Part shown: one piece after another, positions 1,450 to 39,457 of the stretch
Layout: every line of letters begins with the position of its first letter
Position numbering within the stretch: the stretch's first letter is position 1
Notes under the pieces: model-generated
What the model was told of the DNA's origin: nothing
Database searches by the model: none
The model's input: only the letters and a program-made list of their open reading frames with translations
Assembly: GCA_001777665.1 (NCBI GenBank)
Contig: MFEQ01000006.1
Span: 278,300 to 342,299 of the forward strand
DNA from: Candidatus Doudnabacteria bacterium RIFCSPHIGHO2_02_FULL_42_25
GTDB lineage: Bacteria; Patescibacteriota; Doudnabacteria; UBA920; O2-02-FULL-48-8
Length of the DNA: 64,000 nucleotides
Direction of reading: 5' to 3'
Program-made: the position numbers and the translations under genes

Positions 1450-2136
1450 TTAAAAATTATATGCTGGTCTGGAAGTAAAAAATTTAAATTCAGTTAATGG
1501 CAGGGCTCGGACAAAGACTTTTCCGATGATATCTTTTTCCGGTAAAACGCCCCAGTCCCTAGAATCTGAAGATGCAAGCCTGTTATCGCCCATTACAAAG
1601 TATTCGCCAGCTCCAAGAGTTAGAATCTTACTCCCACCGAGTAATACTGTATCTTGCTCATAAGTCATGCTTTGGTTGGGTAGATATTTTTCATCGAGTG
1701 CAACTCCGTCGGGGTGTTCATCGTTATAAATGATTACCTTGCCATTCTGCAACTGAAGTTTTTCACCAGGTAAGACGATTATTCGCTTGATAAAAAATTG
1801 GTTTTCGTCTTTCGGGTAACGCATAACGATGACATCACCGCGTTTGGGGTCTCCAAAGTTGTAGGATAATTCATCTATAATCAAATACTCACCATCTTGG
1901 AAATTCGGGACCATGGACGATCCAGAGACGATAAAGGGCTGGAATACAAAATAACGAATCGGGATAATAATTACAAGGGCAACCAATACAATTTTCAGAA
2001 AATCCCAAATTAATAAGGCTGTGGCAGTAAAACCACCAAAGAAATTTCGATTTTTAGATGTTTTTTCTGTTTGATTGTCTGAATTTTGTTGAGTTGTCAT
2101 AAATTTATCTGGTGGATCCGGATGGATTTGAACCAT
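1450..2136 (-). CDS. lepB: signal peptidase I (S26 family)
   Basis: N-terminal TM segment, an 'SGSSMVPNF' Ser box, the 'GDNRLASSDSRDWG' box and 'IIGKVFVRALP' are all present in the translation. Confidence 0.85.
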   Translation of the reverse strand: MVQIHPDPPDKFMTTQQNSDNQTEKTSKNRNFFGGFTATALLIWDFLKIVLVALVIIIPIRYFVFQPFIVSGSSMVPNFQDGEYLIIDELSYNFGDPKRGDVIVMRYPKDENQFFIKRIIVLPGEKLQLQNGKVIIYNDEHPDGVALDEKYLPNQSMTYEQDTVLLGGSKILTLGAGEYFVMGDNRLASSDSRDWGVLPEKDIIGKVFVRALPLTEFKFFTSRPAYNF

Positions 2137-2164
2137 CGGCCTTTTGGATGTGAACCGAACGCTC

Positions 2165-2289
2165 CCCGCCTGCCACGCCTAATTAAATTTCTTGGTGGAC
2201 GATAGTGGATTCGAACCACTGACCTCGTCGATGTGAACGACGCACTCTAACCAGCTGAGCTAATCGTCCAAGATGGCATGGCGGGCAGG
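2165..2289 (-). repeat. palindromic-element arms CCTGCCCGCCATGCC / GGCGTGGCAGGCGGG flanking a complete tRNA-Val, inserted in the D-loop of the outer tRNA
   Basis: Read on the minus strand, the arms are the same 15-nt pair found in-frame in topA, uvrA and uvrC. Here the 'loop' between them is a whole tRNA gene. Confidence 0.7.
2194..2269 (-). tRNA. tRNA-Val (anticodon CAC)
   Basis: 76-nt cloverleaf GGACGAT-TA-GCTCAGCTGGTTAGAGT-G-CGTCG-TTCACAT-CGACG-AGGTC-AGTGG-TTCGAAT-CCACT-ATCGTCC-A. CCA follows in the genomic sequence. Confidence 0.85.
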
Positions 2290-9399: not shown

Positions 9400-11709
9400 A
9401 TGGCAAAATCACTAGTCATAGTAGAGAGTCCGACTAAGGCAAAAACGATTTCCAAATTCCTCGACGGAAAGTATAAAGTCGAGGCGTCTTTTGGTCATAT
9501 CCGCGATTTGCCGACCAGTAAAATGGGAATCGACATCGAACATGATTTCGAACCTACATATGTCATTCCACCGAAAGCAAAAAAGAAAATTGCTGAACTA
9601 AAAAAATTGGCGAAAGATGCCGAAGAAATAATTCTCGCGACTGACGAAGACCGCGAAGGTGAAGCCATTGCCTGGCATTTGGTAGAGGCTTTGGGCTTAA
9701 ATAAAACTCATAAACCAGAAGCTAAAATCAAACGCATCGTTTTCCACGAAATTACGAGGTCGGCTATAGAAACCGCGATGGAACATCCTCGGGAGCTGGA
9801 TATAGATTTAGTCGACGCCCAGCAAGCACGCCGAGTACTCGACCGGTTGGTGGGTTATGAACTCTCCCCTTTCTTATGGAAGAAGGTTAAGAGAGGCTTG
9901 TCAGCCGGACGTGTCCAATCTGTCGCTGTGAGATTGGTCGTGGATCGCGAACGCGAAATCCAAAAATTTACTCCAGAAGAATATTGGAACATTATTGCGA
10001 CTTTTCATAAAGATAATAATTTCCTAGGTAAACTCAACAAAATCGACGGCAAAACTTTGGATAAACTCGGGATAAAAAACGAGACTCAAGCCAAGAAAAT
10101 TTTAGCTGATCTCGCCAACCGACCAGCCGAGGTCACAGAGGTTACGAAAAAAGAAGTCCGACGCAATCCAGCTGCTCCTTTTATTACATCTTCACTCCAG
10201 CAAGAAGCAGCTCGGAAGCTCGGTTTCAGTGCCAAACAGACCATGATGTACGCCCAGCAATTATATGAAGGTGTGGAACTTGGCGACGGCAGTGCGACAG
10301 GTTTAATTACCTATATGAGAACGGATTCAGTTAATCTTTCTGAGTTTGCGCTCGATTCAGCCCACAAAGCGATCATGGAACGATATGGTAAAGACTATTT
10401 ACTCGATACTCCTCGCAAATATGCGTCCCGATCGAAAAACGCCCAGGAAGCACATGAAGCCATCCGACCAACTGATTTACAAAGAGATCCCGAAAGTCTC
10501 AAAGACCACCTCGATCGCAACCAACATCGACTTTATGATTTGATTTGGAAACGAACAATCGCTAGCCAAATGCCAGAAGCTGTATTTGATCAAACCGCGG
10601 TTGATATCGAGATTAAAGGTGATAAAAAATACACCTTCCGTGCCAATGGCCAAGTCATCAAATTCGATGGATTCATGAAAGTTTACCTAGAAGGCACTGA
10701 TGAAGAAGAGCCTACTGAAGAAGACCTGCCCGCCATGCCTCGTGGTGGGCCAGATGACAAGGCGTGGCAGGCGGGCGGGTTGCTACCTGAACTCAAGGTT
10801 GGCGATAAACCAAAAGTCGTTAAAATTTTACCGAAACAATCTTTCACCCAACCTCTACCTCGCTACACTGATGCCACTCTGATCAAAGCTTTAGAAGAAC
10901 AAGGGATCGGCCGTCCCTCGACTTATGCGCCAACCCTGACAACAATTCAAGAACGCGATTACGTCAATAAAATTGATAAAAAATACCATCCGACTGAAAT
11001 GGGTTTTATCGTTAATGATATTTTAGTTGAACATTTCCCAAAAATTGTAGATCTCCAATTCACAGCGCTTATGGAAGATGAATTGGATGGCATAGCCACG
11101 GGTGAAAAGGCCTGGGTGCCGGTGATCAAAGAATTTTATGGCCCCTTCCATGAAAATTTGAAAACTAAAGAAAAAGAAGTCGAACGCCATGTCGAAATTT
11201 TGGATGAAAAATGTCCTCTTTCGGGTCATCCCCTACAGATTAAGTTTGGCCGGTTTGGAAAATTTGTGGCATGTACTAATTATCCAGAATGTAAATTCAC
11301 CCGTCCGATGCCAGAAGAACAAAAATTGATCGAAGAAAATAGCGGGGAAATTTGCGATGTTTGCGGTCGTCCTATGATCGTAAAGTTTGGTCGGTTTGGT
11401 GCTTTCCTCGGTTGCAGTGGTTATCCGGATTGTAAAAATATCAAAAAGATTCAAAAAGGTACTGGTGTCACTTGCCCATCCTGCGGCGAAGGCGAATTGG
11501 TAGAACGACGCAGCAAACGTGGAATTTTCTATTCTTGTTCCAAATATCCGAAATGTAAATTCCTGATGAATGGTAAACCGACTGGTGAAAAATGCCCGCA
11601 ATCGGGCGATCTATTGATGGAAACTAAAAACGGTACTCTGAAGTGCAGCAACAAAGAATGTGACTATGAACGCGAAGCTGCCCCCGCTGAAGTTGAAAAA
11701 GCAAAATAA
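9400..11709 (+). CDS. topA: DNA topoisomerase I with three C-terminal zinc ribbons
   Basis: Toprim N-terminus (LVIVESPTKAKTI), an active-site Tyr region and repeated CxxC…CxxC zinc-ribbon modules are present. Confidence 0.9.
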   Translation: MAKSLVIVESPTKAKTISKFLDGKYKVEASFGHIRDLPTSKMGIDIEHDFEPTYVIPPKAKKKIAELKKLAKDAEEIILATDEDREGEAIAWHLVEALGLNKTHKPEAKIKRIVFHEITRSAIETAMEHPRELDIDLVDAQQARRVLDRLVGYELSPFLWKKVKRGLSAGRVQSVAVRLVVDREREIQKFTPEEYWNIIATFHKDNNFLGKLNKIDGKTLDKLGIKNETQAKKILADLANRPAEVTEVTKKEVRRNPAAPFITSSLQQEAARKLGFSAKQTMMYAQQLYEGVELGDGSATGLITYMRTDSVNLSEFALDSAHKAIMERYGKDYLLDTPRKYASRSKNAQEAHEAIRPTDLQRDPESLKDHLDRNQHRLYDLIWKRTIASQMPEAVFDQTAVDIEIKGDKKYTFRANGQVIKFDGFMKVYLEGTDEEEPTEEDLPAMPRGGPDDKAWQAGGLLPELKVGDKPKVVKILPKQSFTQPLPRYTDATLIKALEEQGIGRPSTYAPTLTTIQERDYVNKIDKKYHPTEMGFIVNDILVEHFPKIVDLQFTALMEDELDGIATGEKAWVPVIKEFYGPFHENLKTKEKEVERHVEILDEKCPLSGHPLQIKFGRFGKFVACTNYPECKFTRPMPEEQKLIEENSGEICDVCGRPMIVKFGRFGAFLGCSGYPDCKNIKKIQKGTGVTCPSCGEGELVERRSKRGIFYSCSKYPKCKFLMNGKPTGEKCPQSGDLLMETKNGTLKCSNKECDYEREAAPAEVEKAK
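10725..10775 (+). repeat. 51-bp palindromic element inserted in-frame in topA
   Basis: CCTGCCCGCCATGCC-N21-GGCGTGGCAGGCGGG. It encodes LPAMPRGGPDDKAWQAGG. Confidence 0.85.
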
Positions 11710-27178: not shown

Positions 27179-27754
27179 TTACTTCTTGAGTTCGGCTATG
27201 ACTATATACCTCTTCCACGCAGTACCAATTGGATAAGACGTTTGAAGTGTTAATAAATACTTAGATTCATCTTGCTGCAACACTGACAGGTCTTTTGCAT
27301 CCACGACTTTTTTCTCTTTGACTTCATAAGTATATCCGCGGCCAGCATGATCACTGATGATAATTTTCGCGCCGATGTCGATATTTGGAAGAGTCGCAAA
27401 CACAGTTTTATAGTCGCCTTTTGACCACAGGTAATCCGAGGAGTGACCGAAGATATAAACATTCCCAGATTCACCAGGAACTGCCGTGTCAGGAAAATGC
27501 ACGACACCTTTTCTTAAATCTTCTTGAAACTTTTTCTCATCGTTGTCTGTGGCATAGATAATCGGAGCTTTCACAGCCAGGGAATCGATAACCAGTAAAT
27601 TCGGTTCAACTAAATTTTCATCCGTTGGCTCATTCGGTGTATTTTCAATTTTACCAAAAAAAACATAATCTATGTTTTTATAAACATAGTCCCAGTTTAG
27701 GACTACGATAATAGCCACGAGTAAAAAAAGTACTTTAAAAATATATTTAATCAT
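27179..27754 (-). CDS. sortase-family transpeptidase-like protein in which the catalytic Cys appears to be replaced by Ser
   Basis: N-terminal TM segment. A His motif (NVYIFGHSSDY) is present. 'LLTLQTSYP' aligns to the sortase 'LTLITC' motif, and a downstream Arg is present. The gene is adjacent to an LPXTG substrate. Confidence 0.6.
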   Translation of the reverse strand: MIKYIFKVLFLLVAIIVVLNWDYVYKNIDYVFFGKIENTPNEPTDENLVEPNLLVIDSLAVKAPIIYATDNDEKKFQEDLRKGVVHFPDTAVPGESGNVYIFGHSSDYLWSKGDYKTVFATLPNIDIGAKIIISDHAGRGYTYEVKEKKVVDAKDLSVLQQDESKYLLTLQTSYPIGTAWKRYIVIAELKK

Positions 27755-27804
27755 GAGTTTATTTTAGCATTATAAAAAGCCCCCGCACATGGGGGCTTTA
27801 AAAT

Positions 27805-29607
27805 TTATACTTTTACTACTTTTAGTCTTTTTCTTCCGAGCAATACTACTGGTACTAGTAATAGTCCTAGTAAGTCTGCGTAGATATTCGGATTAACTCC
27901 GGTTCGAGGAAGTTCAGTCGTAGCTCCCAAAATCTGGGGGGTCGGACTTGGACTTGCAGCTGGACTTGGAGTTGGTCCGCCAGCTGGCGGAGGTGTCGGA
28001 CTTGGAGGAACTGGGCCTGGCCCTGAAGCTCCACTACTCGAACCACCGCCCCCGCCGCCTCCACCGCCCCCGCCGCCACCTGGATTACCACCTACGTCAT
28101 TCAAGGTAAAGTGGGCGTTGAGAGTAATATCACCATTGATAGTAACCTGACAAGGTGTAGTTGGTCCTAGACAAGTATTGGCCGCAGGAGCCCCACTAGT
28201 CACTGACCAGCTGTTATCGAAATTCGAGCCTTCATCAGCAGTAGCGGTTAAGCTAACTACTGTTCCTTCATCATAAACTTGAGCACAATTATTTGCTTCG
28301 CCATTGCTGTCGCAAAGAATCAATTCATCATCGTCAGTAACTACACCTTCCCCATCGCCACTCGTGGTTATAGTCAAAGTGAATTGAAGCGGGCCCCCAC
28401 TGCCTTCATCTTCTTCGAAAACTACTGAAACATTTTTGTTAGAATCCATAGTTAAAGTACAGACTGTGGTGGTTTCCGCGGCACAGTCGCCGCCCCAGCT
28501 GACAAAATGCCAACCAGCATCAGCAGTTGCGGTCAAAGTCACGACTGTATTTTCATTATAAACATCATCGCAGTCAGTGGCTTCACAATCAATACTACCA
28601 ACATCAGAACCTGCAGAACCATCCCCTGTGACGTCAGTCACGGTCAGCGTGTACTGAATAGGTTCATGGACAATTTCGTTACAAACGCCATCATGGTCAG
28701 AATCTTCGTAGCCTTCAGGAATTACAACTTGAATTCCTTCAAGATTAGTACAAAGATCTGGATGTGGTTCTTCTTCTGTAAAAGTGTTTACTATGGTACA
28801 GCTAGCTGAACCATTGGAGCTGACTTCAACACTATCACAATTATTACTAGTCTGACTCCAATTATTATTTGGAACTGAAATTTCAGATACAGTATAAGTA
28901 CCAGGAGCCAATGTCAAAACTTCACTACCAATACCTCCATCAGTTTCGATAGTGAAATTATCGTCAGTACCCGTGGTGTAGGAAAAACCAAAAGTCCCAT
29001 TAGCGTTATGGGTTTCTTTGATCACTCTCAAAGTTCCGTTATAAAAACAAGAGCCGTCATCTTCTGTAGCTTCCTCATCAAAATTCAGAGCAGAACCATC
29101 AGTACAACCGAGCACTGGATCTGGCTCGCCATCGCCATCACATGCTCCTTCATTCCAAATATCTTCGTTGACATCATTCCAATTTTTTCCAGGATAGGAA
29201 CCAACACTATTACCGTCTTGGTAGTGGAATGGCGGAATAATGTCATTGATATGGCCATCGTGCCCAGTGATAGCACTGTTTACAGAAACATCTCCTGAAG
29301 ACTTATAAGCATCAGATGCATCCCAGTGACAAAGTGCAATTTTCTTCATCACTGCCCCGCCAAATGGATCATGATCAGCAGTAGCCATTAACGGGGACAT
29401 AGCTAAAACTAGCATGGCGATGACCATACCTGCATGCAAAAATTTGATGTTGCTTTGGCTGTTAACTTTTGATTTTCGAGCGACTCGGACTCGCCCTTTA
29501 CTCTGGGACCGAACTAGTTTTTTCTTGGAAGTACTGCGCATAGAGTTTTGACCTTTCTTTTCGCCAACTGGCGAATTAATTTTAACTGTAGACTGTAGCC
29601 TAAGCAA
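27805..29607 (-). CDS. large surface protein with C-terminal LPXTG cell-wall sorting signal
   Basis: N-terminal signal/TM segment. The C-terminus is …LPRTG, a hydrophobic segment, then RKRLKVVKV. Gly-rich and PT-rich linkers are present. Confidence 0.8.
   Translation of the reverse strand: MLRLQSTVKINSPVGEKKGQNSMRSTSKKKLVRSQSKGRVRVARKSKVNSQSNIKFLHAGMVIAMLVLAMSPLMATADHDPFGGAVMKKIALCHWDASDAYKSSGDVSVNSAITGHDGHINDIIPPFHYQDGNSVGSYPGKNWNDVNEDIWNEGACDGDGEPDPVLGCTDGSALNFDEEATEDDGSCFYNGTLRVIKETHNANGTFGFSYTTGTDDNFTIETDGGIGSEVLTLAPGTYTVSEISVPNNNWSQTSNNCDSVEVSSNGSASCTIVNTFTEEEPHPDLCTNLEGIQVVIPEGYEDSDHDGVCNEIVHEPIQYTLTVTDVTGDGSAGSDVGSIDCEATDCDDVYNENTVVTLTATADAGWHFVSWGGDCAAETTTVCTLTMDSNKNVSVVFEEDEGSGGPLQFTLTITTSGDGEGVVTDDDELILCDSNGEANNCAQVYDEGTVVSLTATADEGSNFDNSWSVTSGAPAANTCLGPTTPCQVTINGDITLNAHFTLNDVGGNPGGGGGGGGGGGGGSSSGASGPGPVPPSPTPPPAGGPTPSPAASPSPTPQILGATTELPRTGVNPNIYADLLGLLLVPVVLLGRKRLKVVKV
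27977..27990. repeat. CCGCCAGCTGGCGG palindrome in-frame (PPAGG) within the PT linker
   Basis: An exact copy. About 30 nt of flanking sequence is identical to the LCP gene linker at 3838-3851. Confidence 0.8.
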
Positions 29608-29668
29608 TGTAAATTGTCAAGACTGACAAAAAAACCGCTCTTTTCGAGCGGTTTTTGTGGATTTCGAG

Positions 29669-31276
29669 CTATTGGTTAACGTTTGAAATCGGTAAACCGA
29701 TTACATACGCGAACCGACCACAATCTACAACCACGAGATGGCTGAAGCTGTGCCCTCGTTCCTCAAACACGCTAGCACTTGGGAATGGGAAACGAGTGTT
29801 GTTTTTCACTTCAAACACTGCAGCAGAATTGCCGCACTTGATGATCGATCCATCTGGATGCGAGTCATTTTCAGTGATAGCTGCATCAGTACTCATGGTT
29901 CCGAGATCAGAATCAGAAATTTTCTTGACTTGTCCGAAGGCAAATCCGAGTCTTCGGAAAGCGTTTTCAGATGTAAATCCTTTTTTCTTACCTTTGTTGG
30001 TGACAAACCAAACTGTCGCATCAGTTCCTTGAACCAGTGTTCCACCAGCTGGTAGTGCTGGTAAGTCAGTTACTGGAATTCCTGTAGGAGCAGAGGCAAG
30101 TACAGTGATGTTTTGAAATTTATGACCGCGAGCATGGAAAACTGCAGCACCACGGAAGGGCTTCAGTCTGCAAGCAGCAGCCAGATAGACAGTTGGGCTA
30201 TCCCCAATTTTGTAGAGTCGGCCATTTCTAATTCCTTGACCGCAATTTTTTCCCGTTTCTTCTTCTTCCTCATCCCCATCCTCGTCATCATCGTCAGAAG
30301 GAGGTGTAACTACTGTACCACCGAAGTCACCTGTGATAGCAGGGTCGCCAGTGGCATTATTATTGGCAGCATCTTTGATCACTGAACCTGTGACAGTGAC
30401 AGTATCACCGACTGCAACTGTTGGCACTGAAGTACCAGCTGAAAGAACAATAACCAGCTCAGTACCAGCAGTATTCCATGTCGCAGATCCGAGAGCACCA
30501 GCGCCATCTTTCCATGAATGTGTATTGTTTAAGACCAATACCGTATCAATATTAGCAGCATCGATCGTGGCTTTGTTAGTCGCTTCACCAAAAGTCAGCA
30601 ATACTCGGTCGCCGGCTTCCAGAGCAGCTGTTCCACCTGTGTTTTGGGCCACTGCTGTAGTCAGCACTGGACCTGCACTATCCGCATTGATCGCAGCTGT
30701 AGTAACAGCAACAACCGTCGGCGAATTGGCAGAGGTGACAATTCCGTCTGTAGCTAACGTTACTGTGACGCTATCTGGACTAGCCCATCCAGTAGCAGCA
30801 GTTTTCAAAACTACAAAAAACTTTCCAGCAGCATTGTTGGAAGCTGTAGTAACTGTAGTTACACTCCCGATGTTCACGGTAGTGTTGCTGCCCGCGAGCA
30901 TGTCTCCTGAATCAAATGAACCATCACCATCGTCCATAAATACTGAAACGTTGGCAAGGTCAGCAGAAACAGCAGTGGCACTGTCCACAGTGACTGCTAC
31001 AGAAGATAAGGTTTCAGCAGCATCAGCTGTAAAGGTGAACTCAATCACGGCTTTTTCGCTATCTGCAGCTACAGCAGTAGCTGAGGTGACCAGTGAGGTC
31101 GGACCCACACTGACTGAAACAGCAGCTAAAGCTACACCTGCGACAAGAAACAACCCCCCTAAAATCGCAAATTTCTTCATATTTTCCTTATTAATGATAT
31201 TAATATTATAGTACATATTATAATCGTTTGTCATCAGATGTTCGTTACATGGTATAATTAACCCAAATGCCCTCAT
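29669..31276 (-). CDS. secreted Ala/Thr/Val-rich surface protein
   Basis: Signal peptide, then a low-complexity beta-rich region, then a C-terminal globular domain. Confidence 0.55.
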
Positions 31277-31776
31277 TTTTAAGAAACAAAAACCAAGGAT
31301 TTATCCAGCACCACTTTTCTTTTGGAAAAGTGGTGACTGGATTTACACTGATAGAACTACTCGTAGTCATTGCGGTTATCGGGATTTTAGCTGCGGTAGT
31401 TTTGGTTGCTATGCAACAATCGAGAATTAAAGCGCGAGATGCCGTACGTAAAGATCAAATTCAAACAATCAGAAGAGCTTTGGAGATTCATCGGTTTGAA
31501 ACCGGAGCCTATCCAAATGGCGGAGCAGTAGGGGGTCCGAACAATGAAACTGATATTCAAAATCTCGCGGGATTCCTTGTTCCGAACTATCTCAAATCCA
31601 TCCCAAATGATCCGAAAAATTCACCACAAAATTACAGGTATGTCTGGCGGCAGGCGGGAGCCGCGATGGGATTGTTTGTTCCATTTAGCAATGACGGTGG
31701 GACGAGCTGTAAAATTGTCACCCCAGGTGCTCAAGCTAATTGGTTTGGCAACGGCACCCCAATTTGTAATTTTTAA
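31267..31776 (+). CDS. type IV pilin / pseudopilin (prepilin-type N-terminal methylation domain)
   Basis: …G|[19 protein letters not shown]… is the prepilin peptidase cleavage and methylation motif. Confidence 0.8.
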
Positions 31777-31779
31777 CTT

Positions 31780-32322
31780 ATGTCCTCCAGGGTATTCGCT
31801 TTACTATGTCTAATAGTTTTAATGCTCGTTGCCGGATTTTTCTTTGTGCAGCAATATGATCAAAATAACCCAGCTGATGTTATAGTCACGCCTACGCCAG
31901 AAGCAACTCCACTTCCCTCACCGCAACCAATCACATCTCCGACGCCGCCTCCGAGTATTACTCCAACTCCAGAACCAACCCCCACGCCGACGCCGACGCC
32001 AACCCCGACTCCAGAACCCATACCTACTCCAACCCCGCCACCTACCCCCAAAACTGTCACTGTTTATATGAACAATAACACCTTTAACCCCTCTAACCTC
32101 ACGATCAACAAAGGTGACACTGTCAAATTCGTGAACGATGACGATGTCTCCCACTGGCCAGCATCAAGTCCCCATCCCACGCACACTACTTATCCTGAAT
32201 TTGATTCAAGCAGACCCATAGCCGCTGGCGGAAGCTGGTCATTCACTTTCACCTATGTCGGGGCTTGGAGTTATCACTGCCATCTCCATCCCAGTATGTC
32301 AGGATTTATTACTGTCCAATAA
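31780..32322 (+). CDS. membrane-anchored cupredoxin (type 1 blue-copper, plastocyanin/amicyanin-like)
   Basis: N-terminal TM segment and a PT-rich linker. C-terminal ligands fit a type 1 copper site: …VSHW… and …YHCHLHPSM (His, Cys, His, Met). Confidence 0.7.
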
Positions 32323-32367
32323 AAAATTTCACTTTAAAAATAGCCCGGTCACCCGAGCTGTTTTTAA

Positions 32368-33273
32368 TTATTTATTCTTTTTCTTGTTATTATCATTACT
32401 CGTGCTTTGGATTACAGAAGGCCCGGCAAGTCCTGAATTATTCCCGAGTGGACACGGATCTTGCAAATCTTCGTATTTGTCCTTCAGTGTATTATAAGCA
32501 CCGTTTGATCCGGGATATACGGCTTGGAACTCACTTGTCACCTCTGCTGGTGTATGTGGAAAGCCATCTATCGTTTTTGCATTGAGATAAGCAGACACAA
32601 TAATTCTACCCAAAGCATTTAATCCACCGCCGCCCTGTTCCAAAACTTGCAGTAAAGACTTTCCTGGAAAAGCATCTTCTCCAAACACAGTCAGGAACAA
32701 AGTATTTGGGTAAATGCCATCACTGGTTGGGTAGCTCCCAAAGTGCTGTTCCTGCTTCCAATATCCAGGACTGCAACCTTGGACTGGAGGAATGACTGTA
32801 ATTGTAATTTTACAGCCATAGTCCCCTCCCTCAATCACGATTTCCCCATCATGATTTTGAGAGACATGTCCTTCTATTGCTGGAACATTAAATTTGACTT
32901 GCCAATGATCAGCTGGATCAGTTTCGGTCACTGTGGCCGAAACCAAAGTATCCGGTTCCACCGGCAAATCAATACTGGTTAAATCCAAAAATGGACACAA
33001 ATTTTTTAGCCCGTCTACCGGATCCAATGTAGTAAAGTATTCAGCAAAATTATTATCAGTATCCAGCTGAACCGTGTATGTCTCATCCACATTTTCACCA
33101 GGAAAGACAGTACCGAAAGGAATGGCAGTATGCGAAACTAAAATCACATCAACCGAGGCATTAACTTTTAACGTGCTGCTTTGAACCAAACTTAATCCAG
33201 ACACCAACAACATAGTGACTATGAGTAAAGCCAAACGCTTGATAACTTTATTTCGAAAATTCTCAAATTGCAT
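32368..33273 (-). CDS. secreted protein, TasA/camelysin-like paralog
   Basis: Signal peptide. It shares the 'FGTVFPGE' block with 36387-37835 and 37860-38942. Confidence 0.5.
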   Translation of the reverse strand: MQFENFRNKVIKRLALLIVTMLLVSGLSLVQSSTLKVNASVDVILVSHTAIPFGTVFPGENVDETYTVQLDTDNNFAEYFTTLDPVDGLKNLCPFLDLTSIDLPVEPDTLVSATVTETDPADHWQVKFNVPAIEGHVSQNHDGEIVIEGGDYGCKITITVIPPVQGCSPGYWKQEQHFGSYPTSDGIYPNTLFLTVFGEDAFPGKSLLQVLEQGGGGLNALGRIIVSAYLNAKTIDGFPHTPAEVTSEFQAVYPGSNGAYNTLKDKYEDLQDPCPLGNNSGLAGPSVIQSTSNDNNKKKNK

Positions 33274-35389
33274 CTTCTGGTTCCTCTACTGGTTCCTCTG
33301 GCAAAACTGCTGAATTCTGTTCCGGGTCTGTGCTTTCGATCGTTTCTGGCGCAGGCACTGACTCTGGTTCTGGCTCTGGCTGCGATTCCGGTTCGGATTG
33401 TGGTCCTGGTTCCGTTTCGGTTGACTCAACTTCTGGTTCTGGCTCAAGTTCCGTTACCACAGACATTGCCGGCTCTGAATACTCGGGTTCGGAATTTTCA
33501 TAAACAATCGGATCAGTAAGCCTAAGATTGGTTGAGAAAAATTCCAAATTCGGGTCACCTGGGGTCGGATCTGGGTCAATCCAATTCGCAGTACCGTCTG
33601 GTACCCTAGAAAACGATTTGTTGTCCGGTACCGGGGAGTAAGTATATACTTTTTGATCAATTAAGATGCCCAGACCAATCGCGGCATTATAAAGTCTCAC
33701 CGTATCTCCGCCACTATTATTCAGTTCAAAATCAGCATCGCCATCTCGATAGACAACCAAGCGCTCTCCTGGATCAACTGTTGTCACCCCAGCTACCACA
33801 TTGGCTGTGCTAATTATTAATTCATTAGCATCATTGTTGTCATAGAGAACATAATTATTCACATCAATTGATGCGTTCGTGCCATTATACAATTCCACAA
33901 ACTCACCATCAATGTCAGACCCGGTTGGATTGGGCAAAAATTCGTTGATTAAAAGTTGATTAAGCGTATCGATTTCTTCCCCACAAACAATTTGATCTGG
34001 CAACTCTCGATAATTCACTGTGACATTGCTTTCAAAATCTATCGCGGCATTAGTAGCTGATGTACCGTGTGTCGCAAATACGGCGAGAACAACTCGGTTA
34101 GCATTGATGTGGATATCACCGTTGGAAGCGTACAGCACAGCATCACCCAAATCAGAATTATCATTGGAAATTTCTATAGCTGCATTGTCACCAGCTTGCG
34201 CTGCTGCGGTAGAGATAAGCAAGAAAGCACCAGAACCATCGCCAGAGCCATTGCCCACAAAATTTACGTTATTATCGATGTCGATTGTGCCGTCAACGAT
34301 GATCGTCACAAAATTATTACCAAGCGCTGGGTCTTGGGTAAGCGTTGTGTTTTGTTCTATAACCAAATTGCCGTGCACATAAACAGGGCCTGCAAAAGTT
34401 ACAGAGTTACTGCCATTGAACACAAGGTTGCCCATAATTTCGGTTGGGCCTAATTCAATCCCAGATGTGCCGTTGGGAAAAACAAAACTTCCATTGACTG
34501 TACCTCCGGCTTGCGCATTTGCTTGCCAGGTTGGAATTTGGACATCAGGCAACGTTGTGGTTGGTGCTCCTTGAGTAGTTGAACCACTGATTATATAGTT
34601 AGCAACTGATACTGCACCTGAGGCAGTAGCATTGCCATTGATGTTTCGGTTCGCGCCACCACCACTCGCGGTAATATCGTTATTCGATCGCAAATCTCCA
34701 TTGATAATAATATTTGCAGAAGCTATAAAGTCATCATTCGTCGGATTATCCCCCGCTGCCAATACTGCTAAATTCGTTGGAAAAACCACATCTGTCGGTG
34801 GGCACAAAACATCGAAATCATAAACTTTGGTATTGATAATACTCTCGTGAGCCAATCCATCTGCTCCATCACAGGCAATTGCTTTGATGACTGTATCAGA
34901 AGTGAGGGAAAGTTGAATCAATTCTGTTTTCAAATCACCCCCGCCATCTGCATCATTTGGCTCACCACATACTGGGTCAGGAATAGTACTAGGGTTGAGT
35001 CCTGACCCATAAGTATAGAAGATATATGTCGCATCCGGATCATCATCGGTCATGACCACATCCACAGTCCCAGCTAGCCCAGTACCCCCAATTAAACTAT
35101 TGTTGTCCACCGCACCAGGTAGGGTCAGAATCGGAGGCTCTATAAAAGCAATTTCTGCGGTGACATTGATGATATGGGCTTCGTATGCTGATAAGAATGG
35201 AACAGCTGAAAGCATAATTACTAAAGTCATAGCAGTCATCTTGAATCCGCGTTTGAAAAGTGTGCCAAAGGAATTGGATGACGAGACAAAGTTACTCTGC
35301 GAAGTAGCTAAAATCCGCACGCGAACATTCCCCCGTTTCCGCGGTGGGATAATATCGAAATTATTAATTGGATTGCTATGTTGAATCAT
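33263..35389 (-). CDS. large secreted protein with SipW-cognate-type N-terminus, beta-helix-like repeats and a Lamin-Tail-Domain
   Basis: The N-terminus SAYEAHIINVTAEIAF matches the paralogs. 'LLINEFLPNPTGSDIDGEFVELYN…YVLYD' is an LTD motif. The C-terminal tail is acidic and P/E-rich. Confidence 0.6.
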   Translation of the reverse strand: MIQHSNPINNFDIIPPRKRGNVRVRILATSQSNFVSSSNSFGTLFKRGFKMTAMTLVIMLSAVPFLSAYEAHIINVTAEIAFIEPPILTLPGAVDNNSLIGGTGLAGTVDVVMTDDDPDATYIFYTYGSGLNPSTIPDPVCGEPNDADGGGDLKTELIQLSLTSDTVIKAIACDGADGLAHESIINTKVYDFDVLCPPTDVVFPTNLAVLAAGDNPTNDDFIASANIIINGDLRSNNDITASGGGANRNINGNATASGAVSVANYIISGSTTQGAPTTTLPDVQIPTWQANAQAGGTVNGSFVFPNGTSGIELGPTEIMGNLVFNGSNSVTFAGPVYVHGNLVIEQNTTLTQDPALGNNFVTIIVDGTIDIDNNVNFVGNGSGDGSGAFLLISTAAAQAGDNAAIEISNDNSDLGDAVLYASNGDIHINANRVVLAVFATHGTSATNAAIDFESNVTVNYRELPDQIVCGEEIDTLNQLLINEFLPNPTGSDIDGEFVELYNGTNASIDVNNYVLYDNNDANELIISTANVVAGVTTVDPGERLVVYRDGDADFELNNSGGDTVRLYNAAIGLGILIDQKVYTYSPVPDNKSFSRVPDGTANWIDPDPTPGDPNLEFFSTNLRLTDPIVYENSEPEYSEPAMSVVTELEPEPEVESTETEPGPQSEPESQPEPEPESVPAPETIESTDPEQNSAVLPEEPVEEPEDAI

Positions 35390-35850
35390 GGCTTAAAAGT
35401 TCTGGCAATTACTCCGACAAAAGGTATCCGAAGTGGACTGTCCCCAATATATACAGCGCGCCCAATCACCTGGTCTTCTGTGATCGGATTGTCTTTGCTG
35501 CTGTTGGCATCCCCTTTCGTAATTAATTTCCCATCTTTTTTCTCCACCAATCTGTGAATCGTAAATCCTCTGGAATTCTGATAAATAATTATTTGTCCCA
35601 ATTCCACTTCACTGCCCGACACTCCTTTCATAAAAATCAAATCATTCGTTTTGAGTGCTGGCCACATCGATCCCGAAGTAATCGTGGCCATCGGGTAGTC
35701 TGTATGCAGTGCTTGCGATAGAATTTTCGGCGTGTAGTAAACTGCTGCTCCTACAAATACAACATAAAGCAGCAATTTAACCAGCCGAATTGCTATTCGC
35801 GTGCCGAGTGATCTTTTTGGTTGTTCAATTGTTTCCACGGCTTCAATCAT
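35386..35850 (-). CDS. SipW/archaeal-type signal peptidase I (S26B)
   Basis: TM anchor and an 'SGSMWPAL' Ser box (SGSMEP-type), plus a downstream His region. It sits in an operon with TasA-like substrates. Confidence 0.7.
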   Translation of the reverse strand: MIEAVETIEQPKRSLGTRIAIRLVKLLLYVVFVGAAVYYTPKILSQALHTDYPMATITSGSMWPALKTNDLIFMKGVSGSEVELGQIIIYQNSRGFTIHRLVEKKDGKLITKGDANSSKDNPITEDQVIGRAVYIGDSPLRIPFVGVIARTFKP

Positions 35851-35859
35851 AGAATTTAA

Positions 35860-36303
35860 CTACCAAATCTTAGGGATCTGAAAAACCCAAACTTTTCCTT
35901 TGTAATATTTGTACTCGGCACTATTTGGAATATGAACGTTGAACTCCAGCCGTTCAGTTTGACCAGGTTCGAGGGTAAAATAATTTTTATTGACTTTCAT
36001 AAAATCCGAGATAGCTCCGAATTTCCAAACCATGACATAGGTTGCGGTATTTCCTTTACTTTCGAGTGTCACGGTCCTGACTGCACTCTTGTCTCTCGGC
36101 AAATCACCAAAGTCCAATCGCTCCCCTGTTGGGTTAACACCAATCTTGTCCTCTTCGATTACTTGAACCAGTGCCTCGTACTTTGCAGCGTTAAAAAACT
36201 GCACTGCTATAAACATCAGAACTAATACCAAAATTCCGTACAAGACCCAACGCAGCCAGGATTTTTTCGGCTTAGATTCTACATTAGTAATTTCTTGTTC
36301 CAT
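35860..36303 (-). CDS. small membrane-anchored protein in the SipW operon
   Basis: 147 aa with an N-terminal TM segment. Confidence 0.45.
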   Translation of the reverse strand: MEQEITNVESKPKKSWLRWVLYGILVLVLMFIAVQFFNAAKYEALVQVIEEDKIGVNPTGERLDFGDLPRDKSAVRTVTLESKGNTATYVMVWKFGAISDFMKVNKNYFTLEPGQTERLEFNVHIPNSAEYKYYKGKVWVFQIPKIW

Positions 36304-36386
36304 AAAATTAATTAATTATTTCATCCCTCACTCCTCCCCGCCAAAAATTGACGGAGAGAGAGTGAAAGATCAAACTAGTTTAATCT

Positions 36387-37835
36387 TTACTCGGGGCAAA
36401 CAGTCAAACCTACTAAGATGGCTTGCAAATCGTCGAAGTCAGTGGCAGCGAAGTAATGTGCTGCATTATCTGCAATATCAGTTTGCAAGAATGTAGCATC
36501 TACATCACCACCAACACCAACTACGAAAATTTCCACTCCAGCTAATCGTGCTGCATCTGCTTCAGCAGCAGCTGCGGCTTTGGCTGTAGCTTCGTTGGTT
36601 GGCTGATTTGGATTACCATCAGTGATAACGACGATAATATCTTTCACAGCTGGCCGTTCATGCTCATGACCATTATTCAGTTCGGCGTTAGCCAAATCTA
36701 ATCCTTCGAAAAGATTAGTTAAGCCGCCAGAGGTTAGAGCATTGATAGCAGTGTGGACATCAGCTTCAGTACCAGTTAGATGAAGATCCAAAGTTCCTGT
36801 GCTCGAAAAACTAGACTGTCCAACATGGACTCCAACTCCAGTCGGAGCCAGAGCAGTGGCGAATGCATTCGCAGCATTCTTGAGCGTGGTTAATTCACCA
36901 GCATCAATACTGCCACTTCGATCCAGGACCAACATCAGATCTATCTGTTCCTCACAACCGATCTCGGTCAGAGAAATTCCAGTTACTTCAATCCACAAAT
37001 CCGTGCCAAACACCAAGTGTTCTACCTCGGATGGCAATCGAAATTCTTCAGGTACATGGAACCCTGGAGTATCGTCGTCAAGGTCATTTCCTTCATCATC
37101 AGCTTCTTGCGCACAATGATTAACGAAACATGGGACCTTGAGATCAATCGTCCAGTTATCAGCTATGTCCTGGGCTGATTTCGCCAATCTACCTACAGCT
37201 ATAAACCCAGGATTCAAGATACTTACGTCCTCCCAGAAATAAGATTCATGGAATGCTTCCACTGATTTATCATTATCAGTTTCAGACCCATCTTCAGTGG
37301 TTTCATGCTTGGATAGATAGTTGGCTAACGGAAGATAACAATATCTCCAATACTCATCCAACGGATTATAAGCTCCGTATGGAGAATTGAGAGGGAGATT
37401 ATCTTCACAGTACTCCCAGGCCGGGCCCTCGAATCCCTCGATATCGAGTGAGCTATATGGATCGCCAGGGAACGGATTCATATTCGAATCACATCCCTCC
37501 AGCGGTACGTCGCCCGCCACTTGGCGAGTTTCGCCACAAACCCATCCGCCTTTGACTTTCGGCTTTTGCTTAATGACATACTCAACGTCATCCACACGAT
37601 TTTCACCCTGGAATGAATCCGACAATTCCACTTGGATATCCCTAGTCAGATATTCTTGTGGGAACACGGTGCCGAATTCGAGCGGGCCTTCGCTGACCGA
37701 GAGTGCGTTTTCAATTCGAGCCGTGACGTTCACAATATGCGCTTCGAATGCTGAAAACGCTGCAGCACCAGCGATTATAACAACTGCTGTTATACCCCCT
37801 AACCCTATTTTCCTCAACCATTTAATGTTTTTCAT
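36387..37835 (-). CDS. secreted TasA/camelysin-like protein with C-terminal von Willebrand factor A domain
   Basis: N-terminus AAAFSAFEAHIVNVTARIENAL. The vWA MIDAS motifs are 'LVLDRSGS' … 'ITDG'. Confidence 0.7.
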   Translation of the reverse strand: MKNIKWLRKIGLGGITAVVIIAGAAAFSAFEAHIVNVTARIENALSVSEGPLEFGTVFPQEYLTRDIQVELSDSFQGENRVDDVEYVIKQKPKVKGGWVCGETRQVAGDVPLEGCDSNMNPFPGDPYSSLDIEGFEGPAWEYCEDNLPLNSPYGAYNPLDEYWRYCYLPLANYLSKHETTEDGSETDNDKSVEAFHESYFWEDVSILNPGFIAVGRLAKSAQDIADNWTIDLKVPCFVNHCAQEADDEGNDLDDDTPGFHVPEEFRLPSEVEHLVFGTDLWIEVTGISLTEIGCEEQIDLMLVLDRSGSIDAGELTTLKNAANAFATALAPTGVGVHVGQSSFSSTGTLDLHLTGTEADVHTAINALTSGGLTNLFEGLDLANAELNNGHEHERPAVKDIIVVITDGNPNQPTNEATAKAAAAAEADAARLAGVEIFVVGVGGDVDATFLQTDIADNAAHYFAATDFDDLQAILVGLTVCPE

Positions 37836-37859
37836 TTTAGGTTAGGTTAATAAGATTTA

Positions 37860-38942
37860 TTATGGAACTTGTACTTCTTCTAGTACGTTAGTAATTGTAC
37901 ACGTTACTGCTCCACTACTGGCCAAAGGAAGGTTATCACAGTCTGCATTACCGTTTACGCTGTTACTATAAGTCGTAGTATAACCCGCTTCGGCATCTTC
38001 CACTACGCTGTAGCTACCTGCTGGAAGACTGATGTCATTGCTACCATCACCCTCAAAAGCTACGGATACACCACCGTTAACAGTAAAACTGAAATCGGCG
38101 AAATTCTGACCTGCCACAACTTTCGTCACAGTCAACGTTCCTGGTGGAGGTGGAGTTTCGCTTACACCATTAACTTCTATCCAGAGATTACAACCAAAAA
38201 CTTTATGCTCATCAGCTGGATCAAGAACAAAATCAGCAGCAACCGCTCCCTGGTTATGTCTAGCGACGAAGTCTTCCCAATCTTGGGCTGAAAACCCTAA
38301 AAAAGTTGGTACAGCTAAGTCAATAATCCAATCATCAACCACATCTCCACCAATCTTTGTGAGATGGCCATTTGTATCATTCCAAGTGACGACACCATTA
38401 GCGAATGTCCAAGGTGTATGGAAGGATGGAAGACTTTCATCATTTTGTGGGACATTCCCATCTGGATCGCTTCCATCTTTGGAAATATATTCACAAAGTG
38501 AAGGAAGCAGACCCCAGGTTTCGTCTCCGACTAACACACGTGGTTCTGGACCACAATCAATAATGAAGTCATCTGGATCATCAGTTTGTAGATTCGGCAA
38601 GATGTGTCCAGTGCCAGTTGGGCCAACGAGTACAGTTCCACCATTAGTTGTCACACCGCACTTTGGCTTTTGGCGAATGAAGTATGATACATCATCTACC
38701 CTATCCTCATCTAGAAACGATTGCGAGAGAGAGACTGCAAGTGGTTTCTCCAGATGTTCTTGTGGGAACACTGTTCCAAAGTCGATGGCATCAACTGGAA
38801 CATTCAATGCATTCTCGATTCGGGCTGTCACATTGATGATGTGTGCTTCGAAAGCTGAAAACGCTGCAGCGCCGGCGATGACAATGGCGAGAGTGCCTAC
38901 TGCCAAGCCTGACTTCTTCAGCGCTTGTTTTAATTTAATCAT
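37860..38942 (-). CDS. secreted TasA/camelysin-like paralog
   Basis: N-terminus AAAFSAFEAHIINVTARIENAL. It is paralogous to the N-terminal half of 36387-37835. Confidence 0.65.
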   Translation of the reverse strand: MIKLKQALKKSGLAVGTLAIVIAGAAAFSAFEAHIINVTARIENALNVPVDAIDFGTVFPQEHLEKPLAVSLSQSFLDEDRVDDVSYFIRQKPKCGVTTNGGTVLVGPTGTGHILPNLQTDDPDDFIIDCGPEPRVLVGDETWGLLPSLCEYISKDGSDPDGNVPQNDESLPSFHTPWTFANGVVTWNDTNGHLTKIGGDVVDDWIIDLAVPTFLGFSAQDWEDFVARHNQGAVAADFVLDPADEHKVFGCNLWIEVNGVSETPPPPGTLTVTKVVAGQNFADFSFTVNGGVSVAFEGDGSNDISLPAGSYSVVEDAEAGYTTTYSNSVNGNADCDNLPLASSGAVTCTITNVLEEVQVP

Positions 38943-39457
38943 TTACTTTTCCTTTTTTACCCCGTCAAATTTGGCTGGGTAAATTAATTTTTTTACTCTT
39001 TTTTCCTGCTTAAACCTCCAAATATTTTTCTAGATGGGGCGATTTTACGCCCCCAGATTGGAGCTAGAAACTAGTTCCGGCCCCATTTAGGGGGCCTAAC
39101 GCAGGAGTTTTTGACACTCAACTACTCTTATAGAGTTCGACTTTTAATTAAGTGTAAATAAAAAATCCCAAAACAAATAAAAAATTGCTTAGGATTTTAC
39201 ATTTTTAAATTGGATGTTTTTTACGAAGCGATAAAAAAGCATATTTTAGACAAACAAAAAGTCATCTACTTAAATTAGATTTCTCCTTTAGTAACTAGTG
39301 ACTTTTGTCTTGGAGTTGAATTATATCAGTTGAATTGTTCAAGGCAATTAAATTTATTTGGCCATAAATATCATACAAATTTCAAGCAATTTTAGTTGCA
39401 TCTGATTGAGCTGTTTATAAGTTGTGATAAACAGTTTATAACGTGCGCATAAATAAA

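Follow-up and report, generated by a model that had tools for sequence, protein, structure and literature searches.

A CPR-wide operon of motif-tagged Ig-like surface proteins with a dedicated signal peptidase in Candidatus Doudnabacteria: a candidate surface fibre system

Dedicated signal peptidase I genes are known to adjoin the genes of donor-strand subunits, i.e., TasA in Bacillus and AbpX or TasA-like proteins in archaea (PMC9245690, PMC9674648, PMC10151520, PMC12518558), and in TasA it is the freed N-terminal strand that serves as the donor strand (PMC9674648, PMC10151520, PMC12518558). The present study concerns a minus-strand operon of six genes, designated K to F, at positions 38942-32368 of a 64,000-nucleotide stretch of the genome of Candidatus Doudnabacteria bacterium RIFCSPHIGHO2_02_FULL_42_25 (contig MFEQ01000006.1, positions 278,300 to 342,299), the whole of which is referred to below as the window. 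The operon encodes a cell-surface system specific to the Candidate Phyla Radiation (CPR, Patescibacteria), which follows a SipW/TasA-like logic with a different, unannotated family of immunoglobulin (Ig)-like proteins and a different cognate signal, and whose products probably form a novel type of surface fibre or of adhesin display. This module is undescribed in the open-access literature on SipW, TasA and donor-strand systems in CPR, and the CPR overviews consulted discuss only type IV pili, sortase and generic adhesins.

The resemblance to the TapA-SipW-TasA and archaeal AbpX systems is threefold. A peptidase of the S26B class is encoded among secreted beta-sandwich proteins that carry a conserved segment directly after the signal peptide, as in both of those systems; as in TapA-SipW-TasA, an accessory protein bears the N-terminal segment on a different body (TapA there, G here), and the probable cleavage-site sequences are alike, i.e., A↓AF-x-x-(I/V), where the arrow marks the cut.

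Organization and conservation of the K to F operon

The features of the operon, together with the second signal peptidase gene of the window, are as follows (window positions).
39480-39457: terminator-like hairpin of the upstream DUF5671 gene, preceding the promoter-like site of K
39320-39347, minus strand: promoter-like site upstream of K, TTGCCT-16-TG-TATAAT (10/12 matches, extended -10 TG; a consensus match only)
39020-39125, minus strand: structured 5' leader with two GC-rich hairpins (GGCCCC..GGGGCC and GGGGCG..CGCCCC)
37860-38942, minus strand: K, with signal peptide, AFEAHIINVTARIENAL segment, Ig-like core of ~235 residues and C-terminal CnaB/SpaA_2-like domain
36387-37835, minus strand: J, with signal peptide, motif and core as in K, fused to a C-terminal von Willebrand factor A (vWA) domain with a metal ion-dependent adhesion site (MIDAS)
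35860-36303, minus strand: I, with N-terminal transmembrane helix, A-K-Y-E-A-L-V-Q-V segment and small ASH/PapD-like Ig domain
35386-35850, minus strand: H, a dedicated signal peptidase I of the endoplasmic reticulum (ER)/archaeal type (S26B), with Ser61 (SGSMWPA), His100 (IHRL) and GDAN
33263-35389, minus strand: G, with signal peptide, AYEAHIINVTAEI motif, beta-helix-like middle, Lamin-Tail Domain (LTD) and acidic Pro/Glu-rich tail, without the core
32368-33273, minus strand: F, a minimal core paralog with diverged N-terminal segment and C-terminal helical 'GYWK' domain
32342-32359, minus strand: terminator-like hairpin just past the F stop codon, at the operon end (7-bp stem with 5 GC pairs, then a T-run)
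1453-2178, minus strand: canonical bacterial LepB-type signal peptidase I (TIGR02227, 143.8 bits; GDNRLASSDSR box)

In transcriptional order the operon encodes K (360 residues), J (482), I (147), H (154), G (708) and F (301). The K-J, J-I and I-H gaps measure 24, 83 and 9 nucleotides, H and G overlap by 4 nucleotides and G and F by 11, and it is because of these short gaps and overlaps, together with the promoter-like site upstream and the terminator-like hairpin downstream, that the six genes are regarded as a single operon; a cupredoxin gene on the opposite strand converges on the latter hairpin. An initial annotation, made from the DNA sequence alone, had described an 11.8-kb 'cluster' of surface-appendage genes, and all eleven of its open reading frames (ORFs) were recovered at the same coordinates. 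The observation is real, if only partly as first described, and more coherent than the sequence alone could show; the unit is to be redrawn as the K-F operon, a CPR-wide module. The 11.8-kb region comprises three transcription units, namely K-F, a plus-strand pilin/cupredoxin pair and a separate minus-strand unit, C-B-A.

The leader from the promoter-like site to the K start codon spans ~375 nucleotides, and its structured portion (39020-39125) has a folding energy of -40.2 kcal/mol (z -4.7), with 0/200 shuffled sequences folding equally well. A scan against Rfam returned no family for this element, the only hits in the window being three tRNAs elsewhere. It may act as a regulatory or stabilising element. 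A similar GGCCCC-loop-GGGGCC hairpin is located ~180 nucleotides upstream of the first K-type (core) gene in L070, one of the related loci (L numbers) described next.

Related loci were obtained from a scan with one genome per GTDB species (75 loci) and from protein look-ups (three loci), yielding 78 loci, of which 76 are non-redundant, and their gene content was counted by phmmer with the proteins of the window. The core is matched in all 78 (193 ORFs), I in 61, H in 60, the vWA domain in 37 and the LTD in 22. K-type genes, one to six in number, invariably come first, followed by I and then by H, with the motif-only gene nearly always next. H is present in 59/60 loci whose contig reaches past the core genes; 17 of the 18 loci without H end 0-367 nucleotides from the last core gene, and only L031 has room for the gene yet lacks it. 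I lies directly upstream of H in 36/36 loci with at least 6 kb beyond H. All loci with meaningful labels are patescibacterial (Wildermuth-, Ryan-, Vogel-, Uhr-, Giovannoni-, Taylor-, Azam-, Portnoy-, Harrison- and Doudnabacteria, and Paceibacteria). The organism of the window is itself of the CPR, as the initial annotation had supposed. Four third-party annotation (TPA) metagenome-assembled genomes of the 'binchicken' series (L053, L055, L063 and L073) carry the full module on contigs labelled Gammaproteobacteria or Bacteroidales, which is more probably a matter of mis-binning or of wrong labels than of occurrence beyond CPR.

K and J are 41% identical across an N-terminal region of ~265 residues, and both display the arrangement signal peptide-AFEAHI(I/V)NVTARIENAL...FGTVFPQE. 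The motif, with the consensus A-[FY]-E-A-H-[VI]-[VI]-N-V-T-A, is positioned directly past the hydrophobic core of the signal peptide, and 11/16 positions are invariant in an alignment of 78 homologues that are otherwise ~55% identical on average (A30, E32, A33, H34, N37, V38, A40, I42, E43, N44 and A45; GTVFPQE is likewise invariant), a conservation far beyond chance. Across 76 related loci the motif was found on 195 ORFs, and since it occurs both on core-bearing (156) and on core-less (39) ORFs, it behaves as a portable module. In the window it is confined to K, J and G. The initial annotation had attributed one N-terminal signature to four paralogous substrates; K and J indeed carry both of its elements, while G has only AYEAHIINVTAEI, and F only FGTVFPGE with a diverged N-terminus, and three members (K, J and F) are core paralogs whereas G is motif-only. 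The motif includes an N-X-T sequon (NVT; 38825-38855, minus strand), with NAS at the aligned position of F (33150-33160, minus strand).

Downstream of H, a motif-bearing core-less gene was recognized by regular expression in 36/51 loci, and most of the other 15/51 have a diverged motif on inspection, e.g., AFEAHVVNVKAEI, AYEAHVIGVTATI or AFEARMIGVTARI. The bodies of these post-H motif-only proteins consist either of LTD/beta-helix modules, as in G, or of a helical 'GYW(K/R)NH' domain of ~170 residues with an acidic low-complexity tail. This recurrent domain (signature C-x3-S-x-GYW(K/R)NH), for which no Pfam family was found, is fused in the window to the F mini-core as its C-terminus (32368-32830, minus strand), and in L014, L021, L035, L059, L070 and others directly to the AFEAH motif, with a long acidic tail of low complexity after it.

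The C-terminal domains of J and G that had been noted at the outset are borne out by profile searches. The vWA domain of J matches PF00092 (4.3e-24, 86.1 bits) with an intact MIDAS (D305-R-S-G-S, T373 and D406), and the combination of core and vWA is found in 37/78 related loci, while the LTD of G (residues 477-571) matches PF00932 (3.8e-13, 50.2 bits against a gathering score of 34.3). K ends in a SpaA_2 (CnaB-like) domain according to Pfam/NCBIfam. At residues ~268-360 of K (window 37860-38130) a Lys274/Glu315/Asn352 pattern like the isopeptide triad of Gram-positive pilins is seen, which is kept in homologues bearing that domain. The K protein is identical to a hypothetical protein of Candidatus Doudnabacteria bacterium RIFCSPLOWO2_02_FULL (GCA_001780055.1, contig MFFA01000003.1). 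In an ENA re-assembly of the same population (L002), the 21-kb locus is near-identical (one mismatch in the first 11 kb compared, none within J) apart from a 10-bp deletion, GACGTACCGC, at 11430-11440, equivalent to window ~37504-37513 inside J. This deletion, which splits the vWA subunit gene into ORFs of 115 and 364 residues, represents either strain-level inactivation or an assembly error.

Peptidase H had been assigned to the SipW/Sec11 class rather than to LepB, an assignment that withstood profile comparison: H scores 78.7 bits with TIGR02228 (cutoff 51.85) against 24.5 bits with the bacterial-type TIGR02227 (cutoff 47), and in the PDB its sequence matches only human SEC11C and SEC11A (1e-6), where SGSMWPA aligns with SGSMEPA, IHRL with VHRV and GDAN with GDNN. 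It keeps the catalytic Ser and has His where P-type enzymes have Lys. H is of the same class (S26B) as SipW yet not its orthologue, with 39.3 bits against an NF046067 cutoff of 190. As a canonical LepB is encoded in the same window, H is a second, specialised signal peptidase, which is proposed to process a private set of Sec substrates marked by the motif. The notion of secreted proteins with a cognate-looking N-terminal signal grouped around an ER/archaeal-class peptidase is thus supported.

The core family and its relation to TasA

The core of ~235 residues is predicted to be a disulfide-containing, Ig-like (ASH/PapD-like) domain. A search with K returned >1062 relatives, every named one of which is from Patescibacteria, and a profile search of 1.84 billion cluster representatives returned 814 clusters (50% identity) at E<=1e-3, of which 290 at E<=1e-30. 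Many relatives of K are core-only proteins of ~250-270 residues, and others add vWA, SpaA_2, LTD, beta-helix or ice-binding-like C-terminal domains. Across 64 members, the core had no Pfam match at a threshold as loose as E<=10, no NCBIfam match covers it, and neither single-sequence nor profile queries returned a sequence relative in the PDB. The F-type family aligns to the K core by hhalign with a probability of 100% (E 1.2e-40), two large insertions being absent from F-type, and the N-terminal LKVNASVDVIL of F aligns with AFEAHIINVTARIENAL; by these alignments, F-type proteins are true core paralogs.

AlphaFold2 (AF2) models were confident, with a pLDDT of 91.7 for full-length K and 94.5 for the core alone. 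With the full-length model, the top fold matches were the Gram-positive pilins PitA, Spy0128 and PitB, driven by the C-terminal CnaB domain, for which reason the core alone was predicted and searched anew. The latter search returned the CanX-like 9bac_z (6.9 over 126 residues) and CanX (6.3), both archaeal donor-strand tube subunits, and, with similar scores, the PapG pilin domain (6.3), PapD-type chaperones (~6) and cohesins, while TasA was not among the top 60 matches. Judged by these models, the core fold appears to resemble ASH/PapD-like Ig domains more closely than it does the jelly roll of TasA.

These results bear on the explanation implied by the initial annotation, in which the paralogs are divergent TasA/CalY homologues of a TasA/camelysin-family fibre system with SipW. 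The operon logic is that of tapA-sipW-tasA, H is in the same S26B class as SipW, and the likely cleavage site (M/L)-F-A↓A-F-E-A-H resembles T-W-A↓A-F-N-D-I of TasA (sequence verified); the TapA sequence near its cleavage site is also similar to A↓AFEAH. Furthermore, PF12389 matches have been reported in Patescibacteria, for other proteins (PMC9245690). Against this, PF12389, to which all of the 111 TasA/CalY homologues gathered here belong (TasA query checked against 8AUR/5OF1), has no match in K, J, G and F and none in the 64 family members at E<=10, and hhalign against the 111-sequence TasA/CalY profile gave a probability of 0.1% both for the K core and for the F-type family. Nor was the SipW-cognate TasA-type leader that had been ascribed to these proteins recognized: TIGR04088 (SipW-type signal peptide) has no match at E<=10 for the N-termini of K, J, G, F and I, whereas the TasA N-terminus, as a control, scores 41.4 bits (cutoff 19). 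Because the profile comparisons and TIGR04088 are negative, membership of the TasA/camelysin family is unsupported, and with H at 39 bits against 190 this explanation is largely refuted at the level of sequence profiles, leaving it a slight chance only; by the same measure, the K-F family is distinct from PF12389. A very remote superfamily link between core and TasA may nevertheless exist, judging from the fold scores alone; CanX has been assigned to the TasA superfamily in the cannulae paper (PMC12518558).

Beyond the lack of detectable sequence or profile homology and of a TIGR04088 signal, the K-F module departs from TasA in the large C-terminal payloads of its subunits (vWA, CnaB, beta-helix, ice-binding-like and LTD), in the additional universal transmembrane-Ig protein I, in the LPXTG-anchored mini-core that some genomes add, and in its restriction to CPR.

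A proposed strand-joined fibre and its alternatives

We propose, with a probability of about 0.45, that the products of the operon form a polar heteropolymer of motif-tagged Ig-like subunits built via the dedicated peptidase H. H would cut at (A/S)↓AFEAH, leaving a c-region of normal length, and the cut would release an amphipathic N-terminal beta-strand which would dock into, or on the edge of, the core sandwich of a neighbouring subunit. Both donor and acceptor, K (the proposed shaft subunit) and J (the proposed adhesin-bearing subunit) would constitute a shaft showing CnaB and vWA payloads. F-type proteins, acceptors that are sometimes wall-anchored, would be located at the cell-proximal base, F being the proposed base or acceptor subunit, while G, as a motif-only and hence donor-only protein, is the proposed distal strand-donating tip or cap. 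The membrane-tethered Ig protein I would act at the peptidase as holder, chaperone or anchor. The polarity would hold both for distal addition of subunits, as in TasA-like self-assembly, and for their addition at the membrane during signal-peptide cutting, and the likely function would be attachment to host cells or surfaces.

The properties of the motif segment are those expected of a strand that fits the cores of all paralogs: its residues alternate between hydrophobic and polar (F-x-A-x-V, then I-x-V-x-A-x-I), its conservation exceeds that of the fold, and in AF2 monomer models it (the N-terminal 17 residues) is the most poorly packed part, unpaired and without regular strand, at pLDDT 66-89 compared with >95 for the core. 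The distribution of anchors is likewise consistent with a polar arrangement. An LPXTG motif or C-terminal transmembrane anchor is present in 7/32 F-type/other members (four with LPRTG, LPKTG or LPRVG and three with a transmembrane helix) and in 0/147 K-type members (Fisher p 3e-6). The LPXTG-bearing F-type proteins are those of L033, L066 (another member of the Doudnabacteria), L077 and L078, and in L033, L066 and L078 a sortase gene, ~50% identical to that of the window, follows directly.

Several observations weigh against this proposal. The sandwich may be complete and need no donor strand, as the AF2 core is confidently folded without the N-terminal segment. The payloads of most K-type paralogs are bulky, an unusual trait in shaft subunits; core-only paralogs are found in most loci and none in this window, and F of the window has neither a wall nor a membrane anchor. 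Furthermore, a canonical -3/-1 site (V-T-A↓) is also present after the motif, and its use would mean that the conserved segment is removed rather than donated; this site is ~11 residues past the h-region, which is far for type I signal peptidase.

The same features may be accounted for without a fibre, if the motif is only a recognition or retention signal for H, the products are monomeric surface proteins and the core is a stalk or envelope-binding module. Such monomeric display would fit the constant N-terminal module with its variable C-terminal payload and a core that seems complete in AF2 models, ASH/'choice-of-anchor D'-type Ig domains are common in surface proteins that do not polymerise, the motif-only proteins show that the motif can function without the core, and other cognate pairs of signal and processing enzyme offer an analogy. 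It would leave unexplained, however, why a plain sorting signal would reach ~17 residues past the h-region and, across class-level lineages, show higher conservation there than the folded domain does, why one to six core paralogs, a core-less protein and a sometimes-anchored mini-core co-occur in fixed order, and why LPXTG-anchored F-type proteins show a bare mini-core at their distal end. We regard monomeric display as rather unlikely, if still the main rival to the fibre.

Protein I, a universal partner of the peptidase, is a candidate tethered chaperone or platform, anchor or minor subunit. Its family has an (N/D)A-x-KY-x-A-x-V-x-V segment, followed by a domain of ~100 residues starting GVNPT-x-ERLDFGDL; the segment is a degenerate version of the motif and stands 24 residues before the LDFG strand, a spacing equal to that from AFEAH to IDFG in K. 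ASH matches are weak and sub-threshold (11/16 members of the I family), I itself has a weak NF012200 match, and the best PDB match of the family profile is Hydin (1e-4). Homology of I to the K core was considered and rejected (hhalign 0.9%), only the LDFG strand motif and the fold class being held in common.

The proposed fibre has counterparts in other pilus types. With chaperone-usher (type 1/P) pili it would share Ig-like subunits, an N-terminal extension of alternating hydrophobicity, an acceptor-only subunit at one end and a non-extendable strand donor at the other; here, by contrast, both usher and outer membrane are lacking, the system has a signal peptidase of its own, and I is tethered to the membrane with one Ig domain where the periplasmic chaperone has two; homology is not demonstrable. 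The FCT and PI-2 islands of sortase-assembled pili also require a signal-peptidase-like protein (SipA/LepA), and the likeness to sortase pili extends to stalk domains of the CnaB type, in which an isopeptide triad is plausible, to an adhesin subunit with vWA and MIDAS, to an LPXTG-anchored basal member in some genomes and to a signal-peptidase homologue within the locus. The K-type proteins differ in having neither LPXTG nor pilin motif (0/147), the sortase is rarely adjacent and has Ser for Cys, and H is an ER-type enzyme with its catalytic Ser and His intact, not one of the degenerate LepB type. Type V pili of Bacteroidia (FimA/Mfa1) share the concept of N-terminal proteolysis licensing strand-exchange polymerisation at the cell surface, yet they involve lipoprotein precursors, a gingipain protease, a C-terminal donor strand, another fold family and diderm cells. 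It is tempting, if a little more speculative than the heteropolymer as such, to see in the operon an undescribed pilus class of Parcubacteria and related CPR lineages, i.e., a chaperone-usher-free, sortase-independent polymer of ASH/PapD-like Ig subunits joined by a near-invariant N-terminal strand, which the dedicated archaeal/eukaryotic-type peptidase would free at the membrane, with swappable adhesins, a strand-only tip and a base anchored in wall or membrane.

Neighbouring genes and significance of the module

The genes that border the operon on its downstream side are as follows.
27179-31276, minus strand: separate unit C-B-A (535-residue protein, LPRTG protein, sortase) with its own promoter-like site at 31234-31205
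27179-27754, minus strand: A, a sortase-fold gene with Ser at the catalytic Cys position (PF04203, 7.7e-25, 87.5 bits)
27805-29607, minus strand: B, an LPRTG-anchored protein of 600 residues (LPRTG, hydrophobic stretch and basic tail; Flg_new_2/SpaA_4 domains)
29669-31276, minus strand: C, a secreted protein of 535 residues, first gene of the unit
31267-31776, plus strand: type IV prepilin-like pilin (N_methyl 27 bits; GspG-like 3.2e-16)
31780-32322, plus strand: membrane-anchored cupredoxin (Copper-bind 33.5 bits; H125, C168-x-x-H171-x-x-M174)

The sortase-like gene proposed initially has the sortase fold and keeps His104 and Arg182, but its catalytic Cys is replaced by Ser173, TLQTS being aligned with the TC of 8t28_A, 4d70_A and 2ln7_A. 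Among its 120 best homologues, none has Cys at the nucleophile position; a motif search found Ser in 97, and eight of the remaining 23, read by eye, all have Ser as well. From these alignments it looks like a whole CPR clade of 'serine sortases' that are still paired with LPXTG substrates, and no paper on Ser-sortases was found in the open-access literature. The evident substrate in the window is the adjacent protein B, whose LPRTG, hydrophobic stretch and basic tail bear out the LPXTG substrate noted previously. The 535-residue protein has no Pfam or NCBIfam match; its N-terminal half is rich in Ala, Thr and Val and is followed by an acidic linker and, in the C-terminal half, three repeats of ~45 residues. 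The calls of a prepilin-type pilin and a type 1 copper cupredoxin are upheld by prepilin motif and ligand pattern, respectively. Only 3 nucleotides separate the pilin gene from that of the cupredoxin, which has a Pro/Thr-rich linker, and the two are apparently co-transcribed; this pairing was not seen near the module in other genomes.

The initial annotation had combined these genes with the peptidase operon into one composite machine; one version of such a machine would be a sortase-polymerised pilus of the Gram-positive type. In this genome all of them lie side by side, sortase pili typically contain CnaB and vWA domains, and LPXTG F-type proteins occur in the four loci named above, directly followed by a sortase in three. 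They are, however, separate transcription units, with pilin and cupredoxin on the opposite strand, and near the module a sortase is found in only 5/78 loci (3/36 of those with at least 6 kb downstream of H), a pilin in 3/78, the cupredoxin in 0/78 and DUF5671 in 2/78. Furthermore, the sortase has Ser at its catalytic Cys position, and K-type proteins are not sortase-polymerisable, as 0/147 carry LPXTG or a transmembrane anchor. On the synteny counts and the layout of strands and terminators, functional linkage of sortase, pilin, cupredoxin and DUF5671 to the module is rejected, with the exception of the occasional F-type LPXTG protein with sortase: the enzyme is outside the conserved module, yet in some genomes anchors the F-type mini-core member. 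A composite machine is accordingly the least probable of the explanations considered here.

Much of bacterial diversity is patescibacterial, and the members so far cultivated all live, to our knowledge, attached to host cells. Type IV pili are the main surface appendage so far discussed for CPR (PMC6744442, PMC11665869). The module described here keeps its gene order across many class-level CPR lineages and presents vWA, CnaB and LTD modules on an unannotated scaffold with its own peptidase. A family of ~800 clusters (50% identity) merits a Pfam/NCBIfam model, and the invariant tag allows substrates to be located easily in any CPR genome; in K and J it ends in a tryptic site (AFEAHI[IV]NVTAR), which makes the cleavage site testable in metaproteomes. 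The neighbouring Ser-for-Cys sortase clade is an enzymological curiosity in its own right. Should the products not form a polymer, the operon would still represent a new cognate signal-and-peptidase sorting system. If they do polymerise, they would constitute a new pilus class, the third pilus type in monoderm episymbionts beside type IV pili, and would provide a prime candidate for, and a molecular handle on, host attachment.

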